Source: Phoronis australis (Eukaryota; Animalia; Phoronida). Taken from it: 64,000 nucleotides of DNA. Shown in pieces: positions 28,501 to 43,000 of the stretch. The stretch is taken from contig NMRA01000005.1 of NCBI GenBank assembly GCA_002633005.1, positions 1,603,048 to 1,667,047 on the forward strand, in the 5' to 3' direction. Each line of letters starts with the position of its first letter. Position 1 is the stretch's first letter. The translations under genes and the position numbers were made by a program. The notes beneath the pieces were generated by a model that made no database searches, had not been told where the DNA came from, and worked only from the letters and a program-made list of their open reading frames with translations.

Positions 28501-31500
28501 ACGGTGTCGAAATATTGACACACCAGAATACATGTTGAATAAAAAGGTCAAAATTTTAGAGGAAAAATACACTTAATGACCCCATGGTTGCACCAAATGA
28601 CCTAAAGTTTTGGAATTAAAATTCAAGTGCATAAATCAAACACGTGTGTAAATCTGAAGTGTCTAGTTCAAAATTTAAGTTTGCACTCAATGACCTTTGA
28701 CCCATTTTATCTGATTGGATGGCCTGATTGCTTAGTTAACTAGTGTATGTATGCTTACACCTGTGTACTGAAATTGGAAAGAATTTCTTGAAAATATAAG
28801 ACCAATAACATTTTGAAAAATAGATGAGAATCACAGTTATCTAATTTCAAGTCTAGCTAAAAATCTTAGTTTGCACTCAATGACCTCCGACCTATTTAAT
28901 CTGATAGGATGACCTAATTACTTAAAAAGTTATCCACTTGATTGGCATGTAGACTTACACCAGTTCTGTACATTGAAAAGAATTCCTAGAAAAATGTAAG
29001 AGAAATAACATTTTGAAAATTAGATGACCTTTGCACCTATTGGCCACTCATGATGTATTATGGGTAAAAAATATATTTAATTTATAAAATTTATGGACGG
29101 CTCAAACATTCTTGGAAAGTTTAAAAATTGAAAGCTGAGTCGTTTGAGAGTTCTTAAGCTCTAGAAAAGGTCGGAAAGAAAAATAATAATAACAAAATGA
29201 TAAAAATCTGAGAATAACAAGAATCTGCACGTAACATCATGTTACTGTAATTACTGGGGAAAAGGATCTGTAAACACACTGTTATAAATTCAGAAGCCAA
29301 GATGGTCTCACTACAAGTGCCTCATGGGTGACTAGCACTTCAGATTCTCAATGTCACACCTGTAACTCACCTGGCCAACCCTACCAGACTGCTTCAGCAG
29401 CACCCCTCCACTTGACACACCAGCAGCCATGTTACCATGGCAATCAATACACACACAACCTACAGTATCAAGTAGTTCACTATCCTGTGAGCTCGCTTGT
29501 TGATCAGACACTGATGCATTAAGAAGCTTGAGTGCTTTCTTGTGAGACTTACGTGACGCACCTAGAGTGATAGCAATGATATAAAAGCAACACCAGTAAC
29601 AATAAAAGAGACTTCAATCCACTTTTGTTTCCAAGATTGCTGTGGCACAAATATGATGTGCTTGTTGAAGTAATCATAGTTCATTATTTTTTAATGTGAA
29701 GTTGGTAATATAGTGACATTTTCATTGTTCTGCAAAAGCGTAATGTCTGCCTGACGAGGAAAATTTACTCATCTACTGTTGGGATGTGTTTAATGCAACT
29801 CAAAACAGAGTACACATTCACACTCCAATTATTGGCCAACTAAATTTAATTCACGACAAATAATCTTAAATATTAAGGAAATCATATTGAAAATTGAATT
29901 TCTGATTACAACATAGAACAGGTACAAGACCCAAACTTAGTGATTTAGCACCAACCTGTCACCATGCTTGAGTCAGCACAACAGTTGAAGCCTTGATCCT
30001 GTGCAAACCATAGTGCTCCTTGTCCAACAACTAAACTGAAATTTGAAAATAACACCACATTCATTTCTTTGAAGTTACAGTCTTAGTCAGTGCAAAAACA
30101 TTTAAAAAAGAAAACCACTTTCGAGAGAAAATGGTAATTAGAAGCAATTAAATCAGCCCCGTTTCCTTTAATTTGCAATCTTGTAATAACTACCATTGCA
30201 ATTGCACAAAGTCAATAAAAAGTGAGAGGAGTCCACTCATCAAAAGCAAGGAAGCCAGAAAATCAGACATTTAGCCTCAAATCTTAAGCAAAAATCAGTG
30301 AATCGTTGATGCAAACTGCTATATAAGAAACATGATCACAAAAATCATTGAATCCTTGACTTAAACTGCTATATTACGCACATGAACACAAAAATCATGC
30401 ATACAAACAGAAAGTCATTCCCATGAACATAAATCATCAGCACACTAAGGTTTTGTGTGGATGATTCATAATTCTTCACTTATTTCCCACAGAAATTATT
30501 GCCACGATTGCAATTTAAATTCATACTTTTGCTAAGACTGGTTGCTTTGCTGCAAACTTTGGGACACTTTACCAACTGTTGTTTTATAACACCTCCACAC
30601 TACAAACCAAGATAACAATAGACCAAAATCACTGTGCGAGTAATATTAGTTGCAAAATTGACAAAACAAAATTTTACTTGTCGGCCATATTGCGTGCTGA
30701 ATAAGTGAATAATTACTGTCAATTTGTGCATGAAAATATTTGCTGTTCTGATGAGTGATGAATGATTTTTCCACACATGGTGTTGCTATGTGTATGTATG
30801 ACTTAACAGTGACGTGAATGATTCAGTGGTGTCTACAGATGACTCAAGGTTTGTGTGCATAATTGCCTGGTACCCTTGAAACTAAGATGTCCAGTGTGTT
30901 GTCTAGTAACACAGTAATTCTTTACTTACTTAGCACACAATATGGCTGACAAATGCTATAATTCAATTTTGTAAAATTCAAAATATTTATTTTATGCTTT
31001 TTGTCTCCGTGATAGCTTTTTACACTCTTGAATATGTTACATGTTGTTCTTTTGTACAGTGGGCCTATGGCCTTTATTACAGAAATAAGTTGAATTTCAC
31101 CAAAAAAGTAACAAATAAATACATAATGGTCTGTTACAAGGAAGGACTGTAGTGTGCAGATGTCATAAATCAACGTTTGTTGAAATTATCAGTAATTGCA
31201 AAAAGTTTACCATCTTGCCAATAATTATTGTTGTGTAAAATAAGTGGATGATTTGCATATCTTCCCTATTCGTACACACCATGGTGGCACTCGTCCTATT
31301 CTGTTGTCTTTCTGTTGTTGCTTGTGCAAGACTGCCTTGGCCACCTCCACCGGGTTCTGTATGTTGGACAAGGCTCCCACACCTGCCCACAGCAAGTTGC
31401 ACCCATCCATCAGGCTGGCATCACACTCTACATGGCCCCCTAGTGTTAGATTTGACCCTCTTCCAGCATTAGTCAACGGAGAGTCCTGAAATGGCAGGAA

Positions 31501-34500
31501 CGGCAAATTTAACAAGACAAACACCAACAATTATTACAAACTCTAAAGCGAACATTAAACACTCAGGTGTTAACAAGTTACCTCTGGGAACAAAGTGTGG
31601 GGTGAGAGAATCAATACAGATCGCCATACATGGCTCCAGCAATGGTGGGAGGTTCTAATTTCTAAGGATCTACCACCAATCGCTGGGCCCCCAGCAACCA
31701 AGCAGATGATTGGGAAGTGCACCTCTTACACCACCTAGTGTCAACGAACAGATTGGGGGTCATCATCGAAAGGTTCTCTATCAATGTTCCCTTAGATTTT
31801 AGCTGTGAGTATGGTTTAAACTTTGTTCCTATGTCGTTAGCACACCAGCTTAGCTTTCATAGTCATAAATTACCTCTAGTATCTTTACAGCATTGGCTAC
31901 TCCGTCCACTGCAGACAAACCTTCTCTCAGTTGCTTCATTACCTAGACATAATAAAAAAAAATGTGTCACAATAAAAATGACAAATCCTAGTTTGCAATG
32001 AGTGGAACAGAAACCCTTGACACAAACATTAGGATGATATTGAAATTGTCAAGCAAATATGAATAAAGAATCTGTAAACTCAAAGATATTGTTACTGTTT
32101 ATACTGCTTTGGTGGAAATTATAATTATCTCATTGCCTGAAACACTATGGCTCATACATGAGTTTATTCCCAAACAACAGATAAGCTCGTAGATGTATGG
32201 AAAAACTCTCCAACTTGGGGCAGTCTCTAGAATTTGGGACACGGAAACTCCCTAATAAAATTAATTTTATACATTCTATAATTTAGGACAAGGGCAATTT
32301 TGGCATTCACCATATTCCTAAAATTTCTACGACGTGTTTTCGATCTACAGAGCTGGTAACTTTGGCCGTCTTTCAGGTGATTCTTGAATTTAGGACAGCC
32401 AATATTGGCTATTTCCAGAATTTGAGGCAAGCTCCAACCTTGAACAAAATAATTTATTTTTCAATGTCGCAAATTTGAGAATTATTACCATAATTGTTCC
32501 TTTTACAGATTAAGAACTATTCCTCACAAGCAACAGTCACTGTTCTACTTCCATTGTTAAGTGAGTGGGTAAACTTTTAGCAACCTCTACTAACTGCATT
32601 TACCTGTTTACAAGCCCGTTTACACAATAACTTGTATTGAGGTTCTCGTGATGGTGAATGGAAACCAGCACCTATAAAACAATCAAATTTATAACATGTG
32701 AGATCATGTTGTCACTTAGAATGTTTTGAACACGATCGCATACATGCAATGAATTTGACTAACTTCACACCCTGGTAATGAAATGACTGGCTCACACACA
32801 TTTGCTACCCCTATGGTTCCAAAGAAACTTTTGATGAAAAATGCTGTTGTTCTAAAAAATCAAGACTAAATTTTTAAATTTTCTAACCTTGTCATAATCC
32901 TGTGTAATATCCAGCACAGGTAGACACGCACGCACGTACACACACACACAACTAATACAGTTTCACGATTATCGGAAACAGTGAATAACAACCGACTTTA
33001 AACCAGAAGCAATTATAACTTGCCACAGTTTTTTCACCAAGAACATTACCAACACATTTATTTTAAAATATGTTTTTGTCTCTTTTGGTTAAGTCTGATG
33101 AATATGAAATTTAATTAGAACTTGCCACCCACCAATAGCTCAAAGCCTATTGTATTAGGTCATCATTAAATGCAAGATGACGCTTTAGGAGTCATTTTTT
33201 TCCAATTTTCAATTTGCGAAGCCATTAAGCTCCATATTCTTTTGGTCTGTACCATTATGAAATTGGGTATATGGATGGATCTCTTCAAAAGCTATAGAAA
33301 AGTGTTGACTTATTGGTGAAATTATAATAACCTAGTATGATACGCGTCACATGATTAGCAATAGGAAATGATGGAATATCCTGTTACTCAGACTGTGTCA
33401 TGTTTTCTAGTGTGACGGGAGCGCCGTCTATTGATGGAGTCGTGAGTAATGACGAGTCGTCAGTTGAGTTACAGAAGCTAGAGTGCGCTATTATATTCTA
33501 AAGGGGTGTAACATGGTCAATTCCTTATTTGGTACTCCGATGACGAAATTTTTAGTTGCATTTTGATTGGTTTTTACGTTTACATTTAAACTTGAGACCC
33601 CTATTTTAGCGTAATTTGGAACATTCGCGGTGCGAATATGCCTATAAAAATGGGCCCCTCACGCTAAAACTTTGGATTCTGCCGGGTTTCGACTCTATCC
33701 GCAACCAAGCAAACTAACTGTTTGGGCCTTTTGAATTTGGACTTTAACGTTTTGTTTGTAAATTCTTTGAATTATAAGTCAAAGCTGCGATGTCGACAGA
33801 AGTTAGCGATGAGTTGTAAGTTTGTAGATTTGTATTTCATATTTATAGTGCTTAATAAACTGAGTATATTTATCTTCTTCTCTCTTGTTTCACTCTCTAG
33901 AAGTTGTCACCATGGTTCTCTCGTATGCGATTCGAACGAGTGAAAAAGTACACAACGCTGCATATATTTTTGTCGGCTACGAACAGTCTACATTTTAGAT
34001 CAGTGCTGGTCGCTCCACCGATTCCCGTTACACTAGGAACACTTTTTTTACTGTCACATCATCTTATTCGGTCATGGTTATTAGCTTCCTGTATCACCCA
34101 TCTACTGCATAGTTCAACATTTCTGCTTTGTTCAGTCCCATGCAAGTATTTGACACAAGATATTCTTGATATGTTATCTGAATATTACAGAAATGACCGC
34201 AATTTTCACCCAGAACGATTACTAAGTATTAGCTAGACATTTTTTTGACATTCACAAGTCTTTCTCAGTGTCATAATGAGCGGCTGATTAAAGCAGTCTG
34301 TGCCGTGGTAAATGTCTTGCCTGGCTTAAGATAGACAGTGATCATCATCTCTAGCTGGCCCAGTAGAGATGGAAGCTAATTTTCAGTGAATTATGCCTCA
34401 CACTGACTAAAGCATCAAAGCCACATTGTTTTAATACCTTTTGCACATAGGGGTACACTTTAGGAGGTTGTCGATGTATTCAACCCCTTCCAACTCGAAG

Positions 34501-35017
34501 CAATCCGTCGTTCAGTTCCCCAAATCGGTAACTCGCCATTTTTAACACCGCGCGCGACAGGTGGTATTACGTCATATACCTTGGTGTGCGCAGTGTAAAA
34601 ATAGCGAGTTACGGATTTTAGGAACTGAACGAGGGACTGCTCGAAAAAATGTTTGATAACGGGAGTATTTATTCGATTTGGAAGGAATTAAATACATCGA
34701 GGACCTCCTAGGTGTCACTCTATGCGCAAAGGTATTTTTAACGTGATTGATGTTTTAGTCAGTGTGAGACATAATTCGCCGAAAAGCTTCCAGCATATGA
34801 GGCTCCTATAGGAGCTCCACCATCTCTACTGGGCCAGCTTAAGAGATGGCGATCACTGTCTAAGCTTCAGAGCCGAGTTTAGGCTTGGGTTGAGACAAAA
34901 TTGACAGACAAGTCACAAATGCAAAATGGAACTCAAACTCAAATTCAAAGTCAAACCGATGAAGTAAATACCTGAATGGACTGCTATGAATGCCAGGAAT
35001 TTGTTAGAGTCGTTCAT
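25512..35017 (-). CDS. TASP1: Threonine aspartase 1 (taspase-1, type-2 asparaginase/Ntn-hydrolase family), ~369 aa, 9 exons
   Basis: Exons 35017-34972, 32671-32604, 31942-31874, 31485-31280, 30035-29956, 29561-29371, 27595-27406, 26484-26336, 25622-25512, phases consistent. Motifs IAVHSGAG, LEDSPLTNAGRGSNL, ECDASLMDG, autocleavage site LD/TVG, AAGVSSGG..LK..GRVGQA, STSGCGEH, WGHSTQSMCIGY. AATAAA on - strand at 25461-25466. Confidence 0.95.
28540..29250. repeat. Interspersed repeat with internal ~190-bp direct duplication (TGACCTTTGACC-type element)
   Basis: GTTTGCACTCAATGACCTYYGACC..TTT.ATCTGAT.GGATG at ~28680 and ~28869. AATAACATTTTGAAAA.TAGATGA occurs twice. Confidence 0.6.
34334..34860. 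mobile_element. Foldback/palindromic MITE, ~530 bp, TA-flanked, in TASP1 intron 1
   Basis: The arms pair along most of their length: GACAGTGATC/GATCACTGTC, AGCTGGCCCAGTAGAGATGG/CCATCTCTACTGGGCCAGCT, CTCACACTGACTAAA/TTTAGTCAGTGTGAG, CGTTCAGTTCC/GGAACTGAACG. Centre near 34570. Confidence 0.85.
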
Positions 35018-35460
35018 TTCCTCCAAAGTATTTTTCGATCACCAGCGGGTTGCAGTTGGACACGGAACCTTTGGGTAAATAAGCAGAATAAGTAGACAGG
35101 TGCAGTCAGAAATGTGCTTGGCCCAGTTTCTTGAGAGCGCCATCTAACGACAAGTTACTTCAACTCCCCACAACAATGTCAAAAGCAATAGCGACTGGAG
35201 AAAAATACAAGTTTTTGCTGAAAATTACTCCCATCGTAATAGTAATTGTCCAGCATTANTGGCAAACAATAAAAAATAAGGACGATTGATACAATGATAA
35301 ATTACGATGTAAACTCTTCAAATATGACATAAGCAATGAATGTGTAAAGCAGCCGATACCCCGCCGTTCACGTCACTGACACATCAGCCAATCAGCGATC
35401 GCTTTCAGAATTCAGTGTTTTGACCATGAATTCGAATTGGCTTTAGTTTGGCACGCAAGT
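35018..35460. promoter_or_regulatory. Putative bidirectional promoter between TASP1 (-) and the SDHAF1/TAMM41 unit (+)
   Basis: Divergent genes under 1 kb apart. CCAAT box AGCCAATCAG ~35387-35396, CRE-like CACGTCA ~35369-35375, CTCF-like AGCGCCATCTAACG ~35136-35149. An N at 35259 makes the spacing uncertain. Confidence 0.5.
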
Positions 35461-35591
35461 CAGGCAAATGGGAGTTTTATTTGTATGTTAGAACCGATTA
35501 CATGCAACATTATTTTGACTACAGTCCCCTTTTAATCTCTCTTGTATTTTTGACCCTTTCAGTTCTCTCCTACTGAAAAGCAGGGTAGGTT

Positions 35592-35678
35592 CACAGGCGT
35601 CCTCAGCTTCTGATCGTCCCCAATACACTACATATAGTATTATGTACTGGGGACGATCAGAAGCTGAGGACGCCTGTG
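35592..35678. mobile_element. 87-bp hAT-type MITE with perfect 31-bp TIRs and 8-bp TSD GGTAGGTT
   Basis: CACAGGCGTCCTCAGCTTCTGATCGTCCCCA (35592-35622) and its exact reverse complement (35648-35678). GGTAGGTT at 35584-35591 and 35679-35686. Confidence 0.9.
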
Positions 35679-35844
35679 GGTAGGTTAAGAAAAAAGGGGC
35701 AAAAATACAAAATCGGCACTTTTCATCCGAACACCACCACTTTCCTGGCAATGCACGACATATACCAATATAACAATCTGAATGAAAATTTTTTTAAGCT
35801 TTTGTAACTACTGCTCCCTCTGTTGTAGGTGATCTAAACCAGTG

Positions 35845-36099
35845 ATGTCACTGCGCAGTCCCATTCAGAAAGAAGTACTGAAGCTGTACAGGCACTTACT
35901 GCGAGCTACTTGGGACAAGCCAAGTCTGAACCGTCTGGTCAGAGACAAATACCGGGAAAACGCTACCATACCCAGGAAAGACACATTCACCATAGACTTC
36001 TTGTTACGACAAGGACAGAAGCAGCTGCAGACACTTAAAGGAAAGGGAGTTCAGACGGGAGGGAGATTTTCTGTCAGAAATTCAAAACCTGATTCTTAA
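35845..36099 (+). CDS. SDHAF1: Succinate dehydrogenase assembly factor 1 (LYR-motif protein), 84 aa, intronless CDS
   Basis: MSLRSPIQKEVLKLYRHLLRA...VRDKYRENATIPRKDTFTIDFLLRQGQKQLQTL matches the SDHAF1 pattern (LQ.QVL.LYR.LLR, .PR.D...IE.L.R.G.RQL). Splice acceptor tgttgtag ends at 35828, 16 nt before the ATG. Confidence 0.88.
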   Translation: MSLRSPIQKEVLKLYRHLLRATWDKPSLNRLVRDKYRENATIPRKDTFTIDFLLRQGQKQLQTLKGKGVQTGGRFSVRNSKPDS

Positions 36100-36129
36100 A
36101 TTCTGAGAAGGCTCAGAAAAAGTGTAAAA

Positions 36130-37113
36130 ATGAGCGTGATTAAGTCGATTTATAGTCGGATTCTGTCGCACTTTCCTGGTGAGATGGAGATGGTGTTTGC
36201 CTATGGTTCAGGAGCATTTCAGCAAACGAGTTTGATTGACAAGTCGAATAACATGCTAGATTTTATTATATCTGTCAACAATTCGACTTTATGGCATCAG
36301 GAAAACATCAAGCGTAACAAGGATCATTACTCATTCTTGAAGAAGCTGGGTCCCAAAACTGTGGCTAAGATACAAGATAAATATGGTGCCAACATTTACT
36401 TCAACACTATGGTTCCTTGTGAAGGCCGTATGATCAAATACGGCGTAATCAGTACCGATCGCTTAGTTAATGATCTCCTCGATTGGGACACACTATACGT
36501 GAGTGGTCGTTTACACAAGCCAGTCCACATGTTGGTGAAACCCAGCTGCAATGTGCTGCAGACTGCGATGAACATTAATAGGCAGAGTGCTGTGCATGCG
36601 GCATTGTTGTTGCTTCCCGACGTTTTCTCTGAAGAAGATTTGTTTATGAAAATTGCTGGTCTGTCGTATTCTGGAGATCTCAGAATGTCTATGGCTGAAG
36701 ATCAAAATAAGGTATCAAACATAGTGAAACCAAACGTCCGTTTTTTTCGCGAATTATACACAAATGAATTAGAACAACAAAGTGACCATTTATACTGGGA
36801 CAAGCATAAGGGGACATTTGAGCAACAGTTGTGCAGTGCTACACAACATTATCATCTGAACATGCTGCCTAAGGCTGTGCAGATTGGATTGGTTGCTTAC
36901 AGGAATATGGATGGCCGCACACGGGATACAGAAGAGGTGTTGAAGAGTATATCACAAGACACTCGCTGCGACGAGCTGATTACTATGTGCATCTCTGGTA
37001 TTGTGAAGAATTCGAGTTTAACTCAGACAGCTAAGGGTTTATTCACTGCTGGCATTGTTAAAAGTGTCAAATATGGGTGGAAAAAAGTTAAGAAGTGGTG
37101 GAAAAGCAGATAA
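36130..37113 (+). CDS. TAMM41: Mitochondrial phosphatidate cytidylyltransferase (CDP-DAG synthase Tam41/Mmp37), 327 aa, intronless
   Basis: ILSHFP, FAYGSG, MLDFI, HYSFLK.LG, IKYGVIS, DLLDWDTLYVSGRLHKPV, IAGLSYSGDLRM, QTAKGLFTAG motifs. Confidence 0.96.
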   Translation: MSVIKSIYSRILSHFPGEMEMVFAYGSGAFQQTSLIDKSNNMLDFIISVNNSTLWHQENIKRNKDHYSFLKKLGPKTVAKIQDKYGANIYFNTMVPCEGRMIKYGVISTDRLVNDLLDWDTLYVSGRLHKPVHMLVKPSCNVLQTAMNINRQSAVHAALLLLPDVFSEEDLFMKIAGLSYSGDLRMSMAEDQNKVSNIVKPNVRFFRELYTNELEQQSDHLYWDKHKGTFEQQLCSATQHYHLNMLPKAVQIGLVAYRNMDGRTRDTEEVLKSISQDTRCDELITMCISGIVKNSSLTQTAKGLFTAGIVKSVKYGWKKVKKWWKSR

Positions 37114-37817
37114 ACATTAAACTTAAGCTTAGCTTGCACCCTTATTATGTTTGCAGCAGCTTATCACTTTTCACTAAAAACTGATATCAAATGTGAATTT
37201 TTATAAAAAAGCATTGTCCCACGATTTCAGTTAATGTCAGGTGAATTTTTGTAAGGAATGAAAAGGGAATTGATGCACCATTTTTGGAGGTGAGTTTTTG
37301 TTTTTGAGAAAGTAACTAAAAATACCTCGCTTTTGCCTCGATTTTCAAAATGTCCCCAAACAAACACCAGATAAACTCATTTCCTCATTCTGATACTGTA
37401 AGAATTTTCTAAAATGAAGAACTACATTGCATGTCAAACATGACAATTGGCTTTTTTAGCAAAAATTAATGGATGCACATCCCAGAGTATAAGTTTGTAG
37501 GATATGAGTCCTCTAATCCAAAATTCTAAATTAAAATTAAAAAGTGTCACACAGGTGATTGTCTGTTTGGTCAATTGACTAATGATTTTGGATACATGCT
37601 AACTATTAACTTTCATATGTGATAAACTGAACTAAAATGAACTGATTTCTACTGACCGTATTTCTCTGGGTGACGTTTATACAAGTTGTTTTGCACTCAC
37701 CAGCGGCAAAGAATCAACACCTGAATAGTTTACAAAATTAATGCAAATTAATTTTGAAATTTAATAGAAATTGTACGGGACAGTTGCTGTCACCAATCAT
37801 CATACTCTTGTCAATCA

Positions 37818-37823
37818 AATAAA
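37818..37823 (+). terminator. Polyadenylation signal for the SDHAF1/TAMM41 transcript
   Basis: AATAAA about 700 nt after the TAMM41 stop, followed by a GT-rich tract (TATGTTTGAGTGATTGTGTTTGG). Confidence 0.55.
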
Positions 37824-39235
37824 CCTTGGCAGTAAAAAATTATTCTTTTATGTTTGAGTGATTGTGTTTGGTCTGCACGTTCAGAAACTAACCTGCTCAG
37901 GATTTCTTGGAGAATTAATCCCTGTCCAGCCCAAAAGAGTATACTCGCTTGAAAATCACGTGGCGAGTGCAAAGTTATTAAACTGGTATTTGAATGCTTT
38001 AACTTAGTTACTATGCGTCATCTCTGTCTGGACGTCTGGTGTCTGATGGTGCATTGATTTTTGCTTTATATGTTTGCCTCAGTCTGTATCTTTGGAGTTC
38101 CTTGATGGATTAGCATGTAGGTTTCTATTTGGGAGATGATGACCACTTTTCATTTTCAGACAGATTTGACATTTTCTGCCTCTCCTCGTTGCCATTTAAA
38201 AAAAATTTGAGTGCTTGTTTTTACTTTTGCCTCTCTATCCGCCAAAGTGCTCAAAAGATCATGAATATTGGCACATGTTCCTGACAAGAAGACTGTCACT
38301 GTGGCTGACTTATTTTCAGATGTGTTCTACTACTCTGGTGCACCTAGTGTTTAATTTCGTTTTTTGTGTCCATGGCTATAACCCTCTGTTTTTTGTCATT
38401 TGGACAATCTTAGTGACAGGAGTTGTGTGATTCGTATGTCGTTTAAGTAATTCGTTGCCTGGTAAGCACACAATATGACAGAAACATTATTAAAATAGCA
38501 TGTAGTCAAATTTCTCACAAAAATGAGTCTACCCATTTTGTAGTGCACAGCTTCCCTAAAACAAATTGCAAATATTCTGCAGTTACTCGTACCGGACTGT
38601 AGTACGCATATAAAAATGACAAGTTTGAAAACTATTTTTGTGCAAAATGACTAAAAGAATTACTTAAAGATCAAACTCTCCGTTTTGAAAAAAGTATTTG
38701 ATTTCGACCATTTACCTGTATAAAACTGGTGTAAACTTTTTCCACATTTTGATGAGATTTCTTGGCTTGAAAAGATCCAGCATTGAGCTCATGGTAGAGA
38801 CCACCTTCAGCACAATATTATGTCGAACACTGGCAAGTCAACTTATTCAGCCAGGATTCTTCCCAAGCTTTAAAAAAAATCTTCACTAACCAGAATGGAG
38901 AGCAGTTTTATAACAGCCTACCTGGGGTCTGTTTAAGTGACTAGAGACAAACATTTGGTCTTGCGCTCCTACTTCACAATTGCTGAAAATCAGTTTAGCC
39001 AAATAGTTATGATTGGATCTCAATCTAGAACTAATTCATTAAAATCATCTCAGTAACTCACAATTATGCGTGTATTCTTCTAGTCAGCAATTAAGCATGA
39101 CAAGTGATATTTAATTATTTTTCTGAAATAGCTGTGTGGAGCATAATGCCAAACTTTTGACCATTTTAATTGTTCTGCAGATAACCTGCAGTGTTGCTAA
39201 ACCGTGATCATAAAACAAGTAGTGTAATGTAACAA

Positions 39236-39241: not shown

Positions 39242-40051
39242 TTTAACTGTAACCACATTACAAATCAACTGAACTGGCATATTTTATCCACAATGCTTAA
39301 CAGTACAAAGTAATCTAGTGTCGGGAACAGATGAAGATAATCCATGACTGTTAGAGCACCCAGACACAGTAAATTTCTTTTGTTTTTTATAAAAAAAGAC
39401 ACCACAAGTGCAAGCACAAATCCCTTAGCACCCAAGAAAATTTAACGACCATTTATTTCCGAACACTTTCTTATCTACGGAATGTACAGTTCCCTTAAAG
39501 TTTGTACATGAAGATGATGACTGGCCGCTTGCAATGTATGACAACAGATGTCCATCTGGCTGAATCGTAGGTGGAGAAACATCACCGCTGCCATCTAGTA
39601 TAGTCGCTAAGACCATTCTTAAAGTAGATTTTGTTTGTCCTCACTCTATCCACATTCCTCACAGATAGAGAATGAGGTAAATCATTTCATTTCATGCAAT
39701 GCATACTGTAAGTTGTACGAGTGATATTGATATTAACATTCTTGCAAAAATCTCTTGCTTTGCAATTATTAGAAAATCAATTCTTTTTCCAGATTGTGAG
39801 TAAAATGTTATGAGACCCGCACATAACATACAGGCAATCACAGGAGGGGCAATCAACTTAATGTTAGATCAGACCAAGTAAACTACATTTTACTGGCAAC
39901 TTCTACAACCCGCCACGGAGTGAATTACTACTTAAACTTGAGGTCTGAGAACCATGCCTAAACCAGTAAAAACGATGATGGCAAGTAGAGAATCCGTCTA
40001 ATATTAACATGGCACAATACAAAACAGACAAAGAGCACTAATTTGGTGGGG

Positions 40052-43000
40052 TTAGCTAGACTGATTAAGAACATTCTTCAGTATAGCCCCGCCGCTGGGT
40101 GTGGAACTGCGCGAACTGGTTGCACTGTTCTGGGCTGGCTCCGTTGCACTTAACACAGGGGTGAAGGTGGGTATAGCAGACATGAGTAGCTGTGAGTCTG
40201 ACTGACCCTGCAGCTCACCCAGCCTGACTGGTTGGCTGGCGTGCTTTGGCGCCGAGAACGGGTTGAACGCGGGACGCTGATGCTGTTTTTGTTGCTCTTC
40301 TTTCACCATGGCTTCAACAGGCAGCTTCAACTGTGGTTTGGGGGACGACTCCCTCTCTAGGAAGTTGACAAACAACTCTGAGAAGGACTGAAATAGACAG
40401 GAAGTAAAAATGAGAGTAACAAACATTTAGAACTGTGAATCGTATTGCACGTAAAAGCAACTTTGCAAAATAACCAGGGAATCCTGTGTTTACCCGTAGT
40501 TTTCGGTGTAAGTGAAATTAGCCGTTACCAAGGGGAAACAGTATTCTCCGATGACTTCTGGCATGCCCTCTATGACGAATAGTCAAATTCAATTGGATTG
40601 AAGTAAAAAATTAACGACCGGAAATTTTTAACGACACGATAATAATCAAGATGAAGTGTGACCAATCTTGATCATGCATTCAATGAATGATAACGGATAA
40701 AACCCTAAACATACTTCAAACATGAAGAGAGTTTTGAATTTGCGTTTCATTTTTGGAAGCAAGCCACGTAAAGCTAAAGGGCACTATCAAACTATCAAAT
40801 CAATCCAAGAAATATACAGGCATTGCTTACCTGGTTAACTTGACCTTTGGAAGGAGTGACTGGTGGAGTGGGCTTGCTTCCCCACAGACTAGGTAACCAG
40901 CCCCTGCCTGAAGATTCAGCACCGATCTGTAAAACAGTGCATGGCATGTCATTTCATCTGTTCAATCATGCAAGCCCAAGTTATCCACACTAACATGACT
41001 TCAACAAGCTCAGCCTATCACATGACTACACAAACTAGAGGTTTTTGAACCAGCACTTTAAGTTGTATATTCTTTTCAGGGGTTCATGAACTCACTTGAA
41101 ATGGGAAATAAATGATACTCCTTACATACAAGTTGATTTGCTCTAGCAAACTAGAACTTTCCAAGGAATTAAAAGATCACTCTTGGAGATCTCTCGACTC
41201 GCGGCCATTTTTGATCTCATCTGCAAAGTCCCCATGGACTATGAATTGCATTATTACGGCCATGCTTTCATACAAATGCTATTTAGTACTAAATGTTTTA
41301 GTTGACTCGTGGAGTGCATCATTTGAAAAAATCTTATGTGGCATAGCGAATTTCTCACAGATGCTGGCTTTACAGACTGTGCATTGTAAAGCATATCCAT
41401 GAAACCCAGAGAACATTAATTTCTCTGATCACCTTTAGTATGCTTTATATTTGTTGTTTGTGTGATGTTTATGTTTTCATAATCGGACATACAGTACAAG
41501 ACAAACGTAGCCAGAAAAATACACTGTACAAGACAAAAGTAGTCGGACAAAATACCATTTCCCATTATGAAGGTAAATTCAGTCAGTTAACCGCAAGAAC
41601 ATCCAGTAATAACTATTATGAGGGCAAAATTATGGGGGAATGGCTTACTAGAGAAGTTACTAATTTTAGTTCCTGTTAACTCCCCTTCATTCTGGAAACC
41701 CACTCCGACAATAAATTTGGCTTCTGCCCGGTCATCAGGATGGGGAATTCTGGGTATTTTGTCTGATTAATGTTGAAGTGAACTGTAGGTCCACACAGCA
41801 AGTGAGAACGTATGTGTCTTAAGTCAAAACAGTGGAGTAGCTCGGACTATTGTAGCTTAGGGCAGAACATAGAAGTGTCTATTTACACGCAAGACATTGT
41901 GAAGTAGATACCCTGTCATTGGGTTACCATGGCGAGTTGTGGGGCATACCTGAACCAGCTGGTCATGAGTAAAGTCTAGCACACTTCCAACCAAGCGCAA
42001 CACTTCCTGTCTCTTGGCCTGTGGTGCCGTGAAGTAACCCATAAACAAGTTCTTTATGACAGCTCTGCAACGAGAAAGCCATAAGACTCACTACACAGAC
42101 TAGTGGGAGCAGGTCGAGAACTTCTGTTAGGGCCAACATAAAGTGAATTATATTGCATCATTATGCAAAACAAAAAAGTGTAACAGCCCACAGAGAGGGT
42201 ACCATAATCGGAATGGACCCAACATCAAATGGAGCCATTCTGTCAGTGGTAAGAACATGCCAATAAAATGTCATCTAATACCATGACATTGTACCAAATG
42301 TTATCAACAGAAATCAGTTGTAGAGCAGTATTATTATGCTAAAACAGTACAATACTGATTCTGATATCACTTAAACAACTATGTGAATATACTCAGTAGG
42401 TATGCTATTATACTTCAGGGGGTTATATCTGTTTTTGTTAGAGACAATGAGTACTTTCATGAAAAATCAAGAGTCAACTCATGGTCAAGTCGCCATGTCT
42501 CAGCGTTCAACAACTGAAATATAAGCCAACCATGCAGCAGTGGTCAGAGCTAAGTAAACATACTTGTCCACTTTTCCTTCAGTGCTTGTACTCAGCTGAT
42601 GAATGCGATCTTCAGCCTCTTTCAGTTGGTTCTCTCTTAGTTCAACTATAACACACGGAAAATGGGTAAAGAACAGAAGGTACAACTTGTTCATGATTGT
42701 CTCCAATTCTTTATCTTTAAAGAGACCTTCTTAAAATAGTTTCAGTTTAATCATATCTCAACAGAAGTGTCGTCAAACTTCTCTTATAACAGCCCTACTA
42801 TCAATTATGTGAAACCTTCCTCTTACAAATTGACACATCTTAAAAGCCCATGCCTCAATGAGAGAGTTGGAAGTGGCAAAGAGTGCCCACCACTTTTTTG
42901 AAAGGTGCCAAGGGAGCTCCTTTAAGAAAAATGGTCAATCAGTAAAACAATGTTTTCAGTGAGAGCCACCTGATGCCTACTGAAAATCCCCGGTAGAATT

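Follow-up and report, generated by a model that had tools for sequence, protein, structure and literature searches.

One transcript over SDHAF1 and TAMM41 in Phoronis australis, an apparently undescribed animal bicistron

Main finding

In Phoronis australis the genes for two mitochondrial proteins, SDHAF1 and TAMM41, lie in a single transcribed exon with a common splice junction and a common 3' end, as seen in short reads, beside which a minor shorter form is possible. The analysis concerns a stretch of 64,000 nt (assembly GCA_002633005.1, contig NMRA01000005.1, positions 1,603,048 to 1,667,047), which we refer to as the window. The reading that we favour, with a probability of about 0.55, is that both proteins would be made from the one mRNA by cap-dependent scanning with reinitiation after a short upstream ORF (uORF). 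The SDHAF1-TAMM41 bicistron is apparently undescribed; LYR microproteins on bicistronic mitochondrial mRNAs are already well known.

Organization of the locus

The features of the locus are collected in Table 1. Two intronless ORFs on the + strand, 30 nt apart, had been predicted here from the sequence, and their coordinates were confirmed. The two ORFs are in the same reading frame, and the SDHAF1 stop has the context TAA-A. The absence of AATAAA between the ORFs and the single signal past ORF2, both claimed earlier, were borne out as well: a hexamer search found neither AATAAA nor ATTAAA between 35829 and 37115, and the only AATAAA is at 37818, with ATTAAA at 37116, 37530 and 37536. Two copies of ATTAAA in 37530-37541 lie where RNA depth drops by about half, possibly an earlier poly(A) site. 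In the spacer, a perfect 7-bp hairpin (36101-36118) begins one base past the SDHAF1 stop, with a z of -5 against base shuffles for a structure chosen post hoc, and an allele at 36115 within it retains a G-U pair. The hairpin is absent from all seven paired relatives described below.

Table 1. Positions of the features of the SDHAF1-TAMM41 locus in the window.
Feature	Position	Strand	Description
ORF1, SDHAF1 (LYRM8)	35845-36099	+	84 aa; Pfam Complex1_LYR PF05347, E 1.4e-10
ORF2, TAMM41 mitochondrial phosphatidate cytidylyltransferase	36130-37113	+	327 aa, intronless; Tam41_Mmp37 PF09139, E 1.1e-110
Spacer between ORF1 and ORF2	36100-36129	+	exactly 30 nt; without acceptor, without poly(A) signal
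Pyrimidine tract and AG splice acceptor	35811-35828	+	pyrimidine share 0.78; loose 5' read ends at 35828
Single exon with both ORFs and 3' UTR	35829-37828	+	continuous stranded RNA depth
Poly(A) signal AATAAA	37818-37823	+	RNA depth ends in bin 37756-37828
uORF, 3' part	35828-35845	+	8-codon uORF; TGA 35843-35845 overlaps SDHAF1 ATG
Single N, likely site of missing leader exon and promoter	35259		leader end without window match; N between TASP1-like 5' end and repeat

Transcription of the pair

Three stranded RNA-seq runs of the same species, all from one study, provided the RNA evidence, and about a fifth of each run was read. The individuals differ from the assembled one, and the reads are short (151 nt), with a depth of about 7 per run. 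The region 35785-37960 collected 100, 86 and 100 reads in the three runs, nearly all oriented as + strand RNA. Depth was unbroken from the acceptor at 35828 to the bin 37756-37828 and fell to zero from 37829; summed depth was 25.3 on ORF1, 24.5 in the spacer bin, 22.0 on ORF2 and 20.1 in the first half of the 3' UTR. The depth of the first bin fits spliced reads, and the RNA is therefore not pre-mRNA. The acceptor itself, claimed earlier from the sequence, is in use: 15 reads (4, 6 and 5 per run) have loose 5' ends there, with median lengths of 47, 55 and 37 nt and one sequence. Within the exon, no joints, start or end pile-ups or other loose ends were found in the three runs at a listing threshold of 3 reads, and no monocistronic TAMM41 RNA was seen at the depth of about 7 per run. 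Read depth at 36115 was 11, 1 and 15 (27 in total), and about 77% of the 151-nt reads over this position should span the ORF1 stop as well as the ORF2 start, a share that is computed rather than counted. Run X3 was thin, its depth falling to 1.6 over the spacer and to 0.4 in a bin of ORF2, and the X1 contigs over the locus consisted of three short pieces with no bridge. RNA-seq covering both ORFs had been proposed as a check on the original prediction, and all three raw-read runs gave one spliced transcript with one 3' end.

Leader exon and uORF

The junction reads give the 30-nt end of a leader, which is known for those 30 nt alone and may contain more uORFs further upstream; this end had no match in the window when 3 mismatches or gaps were allowed. 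The leader has an ATG 9 nt before the junction, present in all 15 junction reads (consensus agreement 0.99-1) and with G at -3, and its frame leads to the TGA listed in Table 1. When the join of leader and exon is read by eye, the stop of the resulting uORF overlaps the SDHAF1 start as TGATG. The ATG in the leader means that SDHAF1 does not have the first AUG of the mRNA; the original prediction could not take account of this ATG, since the leader exon is missing from the window. Exon 1 is probably hidden by the single N at 35259. Single N characters occur at 35259 and 12684, of which the former may represent a gap of some length. A cis-spliced exon hidden in the gap is more likely than a spliced leader, because the loose ends are long and because no trans-splicing is reported from the annelids examined (PMC7854359).

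Identity of the two proteins

Pfam domains and named homologues together support the identities given to the two genes earlier. PF05347 was above cut-off in window ORF1 and in 7 of 7 paired relatives. A profile of the eight paired SDHAF1 homologues matched P0138, named SDHAF1-like, with an E of 5e-28; among the 10 top profile matches looked up two were named, and the other name was generic. Compared directly, window ORF1 and P0138 are 31% identical over 84 aa (E 9e-16). The best PDB LYR match of the profile was LYRM4, with an E of 2e-5 in a library smaller than that of the P0138 search, and SDHAF1 itself was not found among the PDB matches. A cluster search with one SDHAF1 homologue (Atlas) gave generic LYR clusters only. 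Window ORF1 has LYR at 14-16 and shares Q8, R55 and G57, at the same numbers, with human SDHAF1, in which Gln8, Arg55 and Gly57 are described as disease residues (PMC7700678, PMC7758838); it differs from the human protein by Tyr52 to Phe and Arg56 to Gln. Judged by its sequence, ORF1 is SDHAF1 specifically, being closer to the named SDHAF1 than to other LYR proteins; as an SDHAF1 it would be expected to bind SDHB and HSC20 and to help in assembling complex II.

The TAMM41 ORF covers positions 2-322 of the 322 of the Tam41_Mmp37 profile with 370 bits. Its identity to named homologues is 51-59%, including 59% to the Lamellibrachia protein and 56% to that of Paralvinella, and its family membership suggests that it would act as a CDP-diacylglycerol synthase in mitochondria. 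The SDHAF1 ORF is intact in all eight paired loci, with pN about half of a saturated pS. The window SDHAF1 is the most divergent, at 29-42% identity against 42-65% among the relatives, and the window TAMM41 is not clearly divergent (55-62% against 55-78%). As far as such comparisons of sequence go, both ORFs are conserved as proteins.

Occurrence of the pair in relatives

A scan of metagenome contigs, which favours intronless genes, gave 401 TAMM41 relatives, and the best 80 were kept. In seven of the 80 loci SDHAF1 was found upstream on the same strand, 33-402 nt away. With the window included, the spacers are 30-84 nt long in seven of eight paired loci and 402 nt in one; the contigs of L033 and L048 break off within TAMM41. 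The phylogenetic tree comprised 52 of the 80 loci (L053-L080 were excluded as distant) and 28 database proteins, and its deep nodes are weak. The window was placed beside Lamellibrachia, five paired loci fell among annelids and two with molluscs (group support 0.98). Altogether 33 loci were placed with annelids or molluscs. Seven of these are paired, and 24 form one annelid-like clade without SDHAF1, 15 of them having at least 1 kb upstream. L031, with a TAMM41 that the tree puts at zero distance from that of Paralvinella, has no SDHAF1 in 341 nt, and the flank of L029 is too short to judge pairing. In most of the 21 members of the unpaired clade that were inspected, an acceptor was recognized by eye just before the TAMM41 start. 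SDHAF1 was not found in any of the remaining 47 of the 80 loci.

Among 120 listed homologues there were two fused LYR+Tam41 models, the annelid-like P0019 and P0115 from the freshwater mussel Potamilus streckersoni. In the latter (KAK3576289.1), SDHAF1 continues at residue 3 of the orthologous TAMM41 of Sinanodonta, and we read both models as mis-joined neighbours. No further fused proteins were present in the best 150 of 940 HMMER matches (longest 212 aa) from a library with one protein per 50% cluster. Word-indexed searches, an insensitive type that missed P0019, returned nothing with ORF1, and only the query itself among long proteins with ORF1's LYR domain. Conserved adjacency, another check proposed with the original prediction, was thus observed in 7 of 80 loci and in two fused models, annelid- and mollusc-like, and we infer that the pairing existed before annelids and molluscs diverged and that some annelid lines have since lost it.

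The two ORFs share a frame in six of the eight paired loci (the window, L027, L030, L032, L033 and L048), whose spacers differ; for this a post hoc binomial p on loci that are not independent is about 0.02. Five gastropod TAMM41 proteins (P0042, P0073, P0085, P0116 and P0119) have N-terminal extensions of about 90-110 residues, and annelid-like ones start almost at the domain.

ATGs and start contexts

Between the two starts in the window (35848-36129, 282 nt) there is no ATG in any frame, where about four had been expected in the original prediction. That claim stood. Base composition gives an expectation of 4.6, and 14 of 1275 windows of 282 nt on the + strand are without ATG; the Met frequency of ORF2 gives 4.8 (Poisson p 0.008). 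Given the SDHAF1 protein, zero out-of-frame ATGs have a p of 0.33 by recoding, and 8 of 51 SDHAF1 homologues are without inner Met. A fairer joint p for the ATG-free stretch is about 0.03 (the product of 0.16, 0.33 and 0.55), and the overall p about 0.01-0.03.

The same depletion had been read as the signature of leaky scanning, but as a conserved signature it is not supported: the seven paired relatives contain 32 ATGs against 38.4 expected, 9 against 8.6 out of frame, and 2-9 per locus. Several of these inner ATGs have a purine at -3, and L001 holds nine. Inner Met residues number 13 in the seven ORFs, and their mean is 1.6 in 51 homologues irrespective of gene context. The ATG depletion is thus a feature of the window's lineage, or chance. 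Weak ORF1 context was not supported as a general rule either. In the window the SDHAF1 start has G-3/T+4 and the TAMM41 start A-3. A purine is found at -3 of SDHAF1 in all eight loci, G+4 is missing in six, and both mollusc-like loci (L030, L032) have A-3/G+4; at the TAMM41 start all eight loci have a purine at -3 and six have G+4. Upstream of SDHAF1, the relatives in which the acceptor is clear and leaves enough room (L001, L026 and L030) each have an ATG between it and the SDHAF1 start, with a uORF overlapping that start in L001. Of the four relatives that have an acceptor, three thus carry an upstream ATG, which is close to the chance expectation for 32-120 nt.

Translation of TAMM41

According to the favoured reading, SDHAF1 would be started by ribosomes that leak past the uORF AUG. 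Ribosomes translating the uORF would terminate at the SDHAF1 AUG and resume scanning before being recharged, so that they would pass this AUG; they could then reinitiate at TAMM41, 285 nt on, with no AUG between and in an A-3 context. Ribosomes leaking past both weak-to-middling AUGs may add to TAMM41, the division between leaking and reinitiation being itself predicted. Both stops are in the last exon, and the mRNA should be spared junction-dependent decay. In this best model SDHAF1 and TAMM41 would draw on the same ribosomes or compete for them, and the translational coupling suggested earlier is not shown. In the KSHV mRNA, short uORFs before ORF35 repress ORF35 and the second allows ribosomes to reinitiate at ORF36; when an AUG was added 16 nt past the uORF it was largely skipped, and one at 246 nt was used (PMC3561293). 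A stronger ORF1 context cut ORF2 output in algal bicistrons (PMC11291117). The uORF-reinitiation model leaves the relatives rich in inner ATGs (nine in L001) unexplained, and in them reinitiation after SDHAF1 or a separate TAMM41 mRNA is possible.

Pure leaky scanning, by which TAMM41 would be reached only by ribosomes that skip both the uORF AUG and the SDHAF1 AUG, has in its favour the 282 nt without ATG, the G-3/T+4 of the SDHAF1 start against A-3 at TAMM41, and its demonstration in algal bicistrons (PMC11291117). It requires two leaks at AUGs that both have G at -3, there is no depletion in the seven relatives, and SDHAF1 has A-3/G+4 in both mollusc-like loci, so that we regard it as unlikely, if the least unlikely of the alternatives. 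True coupling, i.e., ribosomes that finish SDHAF1 and reinitiate at TAMM41 over a short spacer, would account for the relatives in which inner ATGs are many and SDHAF1 starts strong; inner ATGs are irrelevant to it, and spacers of 30-84 nt in seven of eight loci would suit it. Against this, reinitiation dropped sharply when a uORF grew from 11 to 64 codons (PMC3561293), UGGGA is found in three of eight loci at differing offsets, neither sequence nor structure of the spacer is conserved, and one spacer has 402 nt; coupling seems to us improbable, more so than pure leaking. Initiation of the IRES or TURBS type was rejected: the fold of 35829-36140 has a z of -0.86, and no motif, structure or UGGGA position is shared.

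The inner ATGs of the relatives, which would block scanning, also speak for a TAMM41 translated mainly from its own mRNA, made by an inner promoter, a second acceptor or trans-splicing, with the long RNA serving SDHAF1 only, and short reads miss some starts. The window exon, however, has no depth step at ORF2 and no joint, loose end or start pile (threshold 3 reads). An acceptor that could receive a spliced leader between the genes is missing as well, with no loose ends in the window spacer and no pyrimidine-tract acceptor in eight of eight spacers; the median length of the loose ends at 35828 reaches 55 nt, and the annelids examined are reported to have no trans-splicing (PMC7854359). We rank this account below coupling, as doubtful. 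A real SDHAF1-TAMM41 fusion protein, arising through stop-codon readthrough or splicing, would agree with the same frame in six of eight loci, a spacer that is open in the window and L032, the hairpin past the window stop and the two fused models. Yet in-frame stops or frame changes occur in six of eight loci, the stop is TAA-A, no joint was seen in the reads and the best 150 matches (longest 212 aa) held no further fused model, which makes the fusion very improbable indeed. A bolder proposal, which we would place between pure leaking and coupling and likewise consider unlikely, is a bicistron of greater age than the annelid-mollusc split, translated without ATG depletion by a reinitiation relay, after short uORFs or after the whole 80-codon SDHAF1 ORF, in which the uORF on the SDHAF1 start would be a switch favouring either complex II assembly or cardiolipin synthesis at the expense of the other.

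Comparison with known systems

No report of an SDHAF1-TAMM41 pairing was found in the literature searched, most subscription papers lying outside the search, in agreement with the earlier statement that the pairing was not known to be described. Human bicistronic mRNAs include MIURF-MIEF1 (AltMIEF1), PYURF-PIGY, ASDURF-ASNSD1 and STREMI-SLC35A4 (PMC13303939), and AltMIEF1 is a LYR protein (PMC12257267). MIURF-MIEF1 likewise has a small conserved protein ahead of a larger ORF on one mRNA, but the partners in this human set are other ones, and SDHAF1 and TAMM41 share one exon. The terms TAMM41 and SDHAF1 do not occur in the main text of PMC13303939, as distinct from its 14-transcript dataset. 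AltMIEF1 matched the ORF1 profile weakly, with an E of 0.7.

The fly LYR gene CG34229 is presumably the fly SDHAF1. It had no matches in the 12 supplementary files of PMC4528330 that were searched, file 1 not being among them. Fly Tam41 is CG33331 (PMC4736822) and appears, in the supplements of PMC4528330 other than file 1, only in a list of shared promoters, together with CG33332. Conserved-peptide uORFs and dicistronic genes of Drosophila are described as enriched for mitochondrial proteins (PMC2276209, PMC4528330), and the pair resembles these dicistronic genes as an animal dicistronic mRNA for mitochondrial proteins. Green-algal bicistrons include TOM22-SDHAF3, and five LYR subfamilies are found on bicistronic mRNAs (PMC7896298, PMC11291117). 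Like the pair described here, TOM22-SDHAF3 combines a complex II LYR assembly factor with another mitochondrial protein and is conserved across species, but SDHAF3 is the downstream ORF in algae, whereas SDHAF1 is upstream here. Leaky scanning with few upstream ATGs was shown for the algal bicistrons, while the scarcity of ATGs is not conserved in the present pair. The KSHV ORF35-37 mRNA (PMC3561293) is similar in having a short uORF just before ORF1, which would repress ORF1 and feed the downstream ORF. That system is viral, has two uORFs and was tested experimentally, whereas here one uORF is known, it ends on the ORF1 start, and its role is predicted.

The pair adds an old, apparently unreported animal bicistron in which complex II assembly is joined with cardiolipin synthesis at its first step, and it reinforces a pattern seen in algae, flies and vertebrates, where LYR microproteins are encoded on the mRNAs of other mitochondrial genes. 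It also offers a natural series, i.e., a species that has a uORF and no ATG on the way to TAMM41, several others in which the gene order goes with many ATGs, and lines that have lost the pair, which makes testable the route to a downstream ORF where leaky scanning should fail. For annotation it is a trap, since at least two gene models fuse SDHAF1 with TAMM41, and SDHAF1 is readily overlooked in spiralian genomes.

Neighbourhood of the pair

A TASP1-like (Asparaginase_2) gene on the - strand (31228-31500, 32601-32671, 34972-~35150) stands head-to-head with SDHAF1-TAMM41. Its first coding exon is spliced to 32669 (joint 32669-34970) in three of three runs, and Asparaginase_2 is on a later exon. 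A two-way promoter common to this gene and the pair is possible. With one exon as query, TASP1 was not found beside related SDHAF1-TAMM41 loci. The repeat at 35260-35800 is truncated at 35260, next to the N at 35259, and contains a palindromic element (35592-35678; 88 nt, 89% self-complementary) that is covered by many reads from both strands and is probably a miniature inverted-repeat element. On the other side, the 3' UTR and a coding exon of another gene are transcribed from the - strand at 39300-40430, convergent on the pair. Among the other loci, those of another animal group (L034, L036-L040) have an intronless TAMM41 head-to-head with a SPMIP11 gene, within about 150 nt of the start, and PF22593 was found for the SPMIP11 gene in L037 and L040. 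A CCT chaperonin gene (L049:184-1900) has the same orientation as TAMM41 and ends about 400 nt upstream of it, and THG1-like exons (L026:3289-4460) lie downstream of an SDHAF1-TAMM41 pair.
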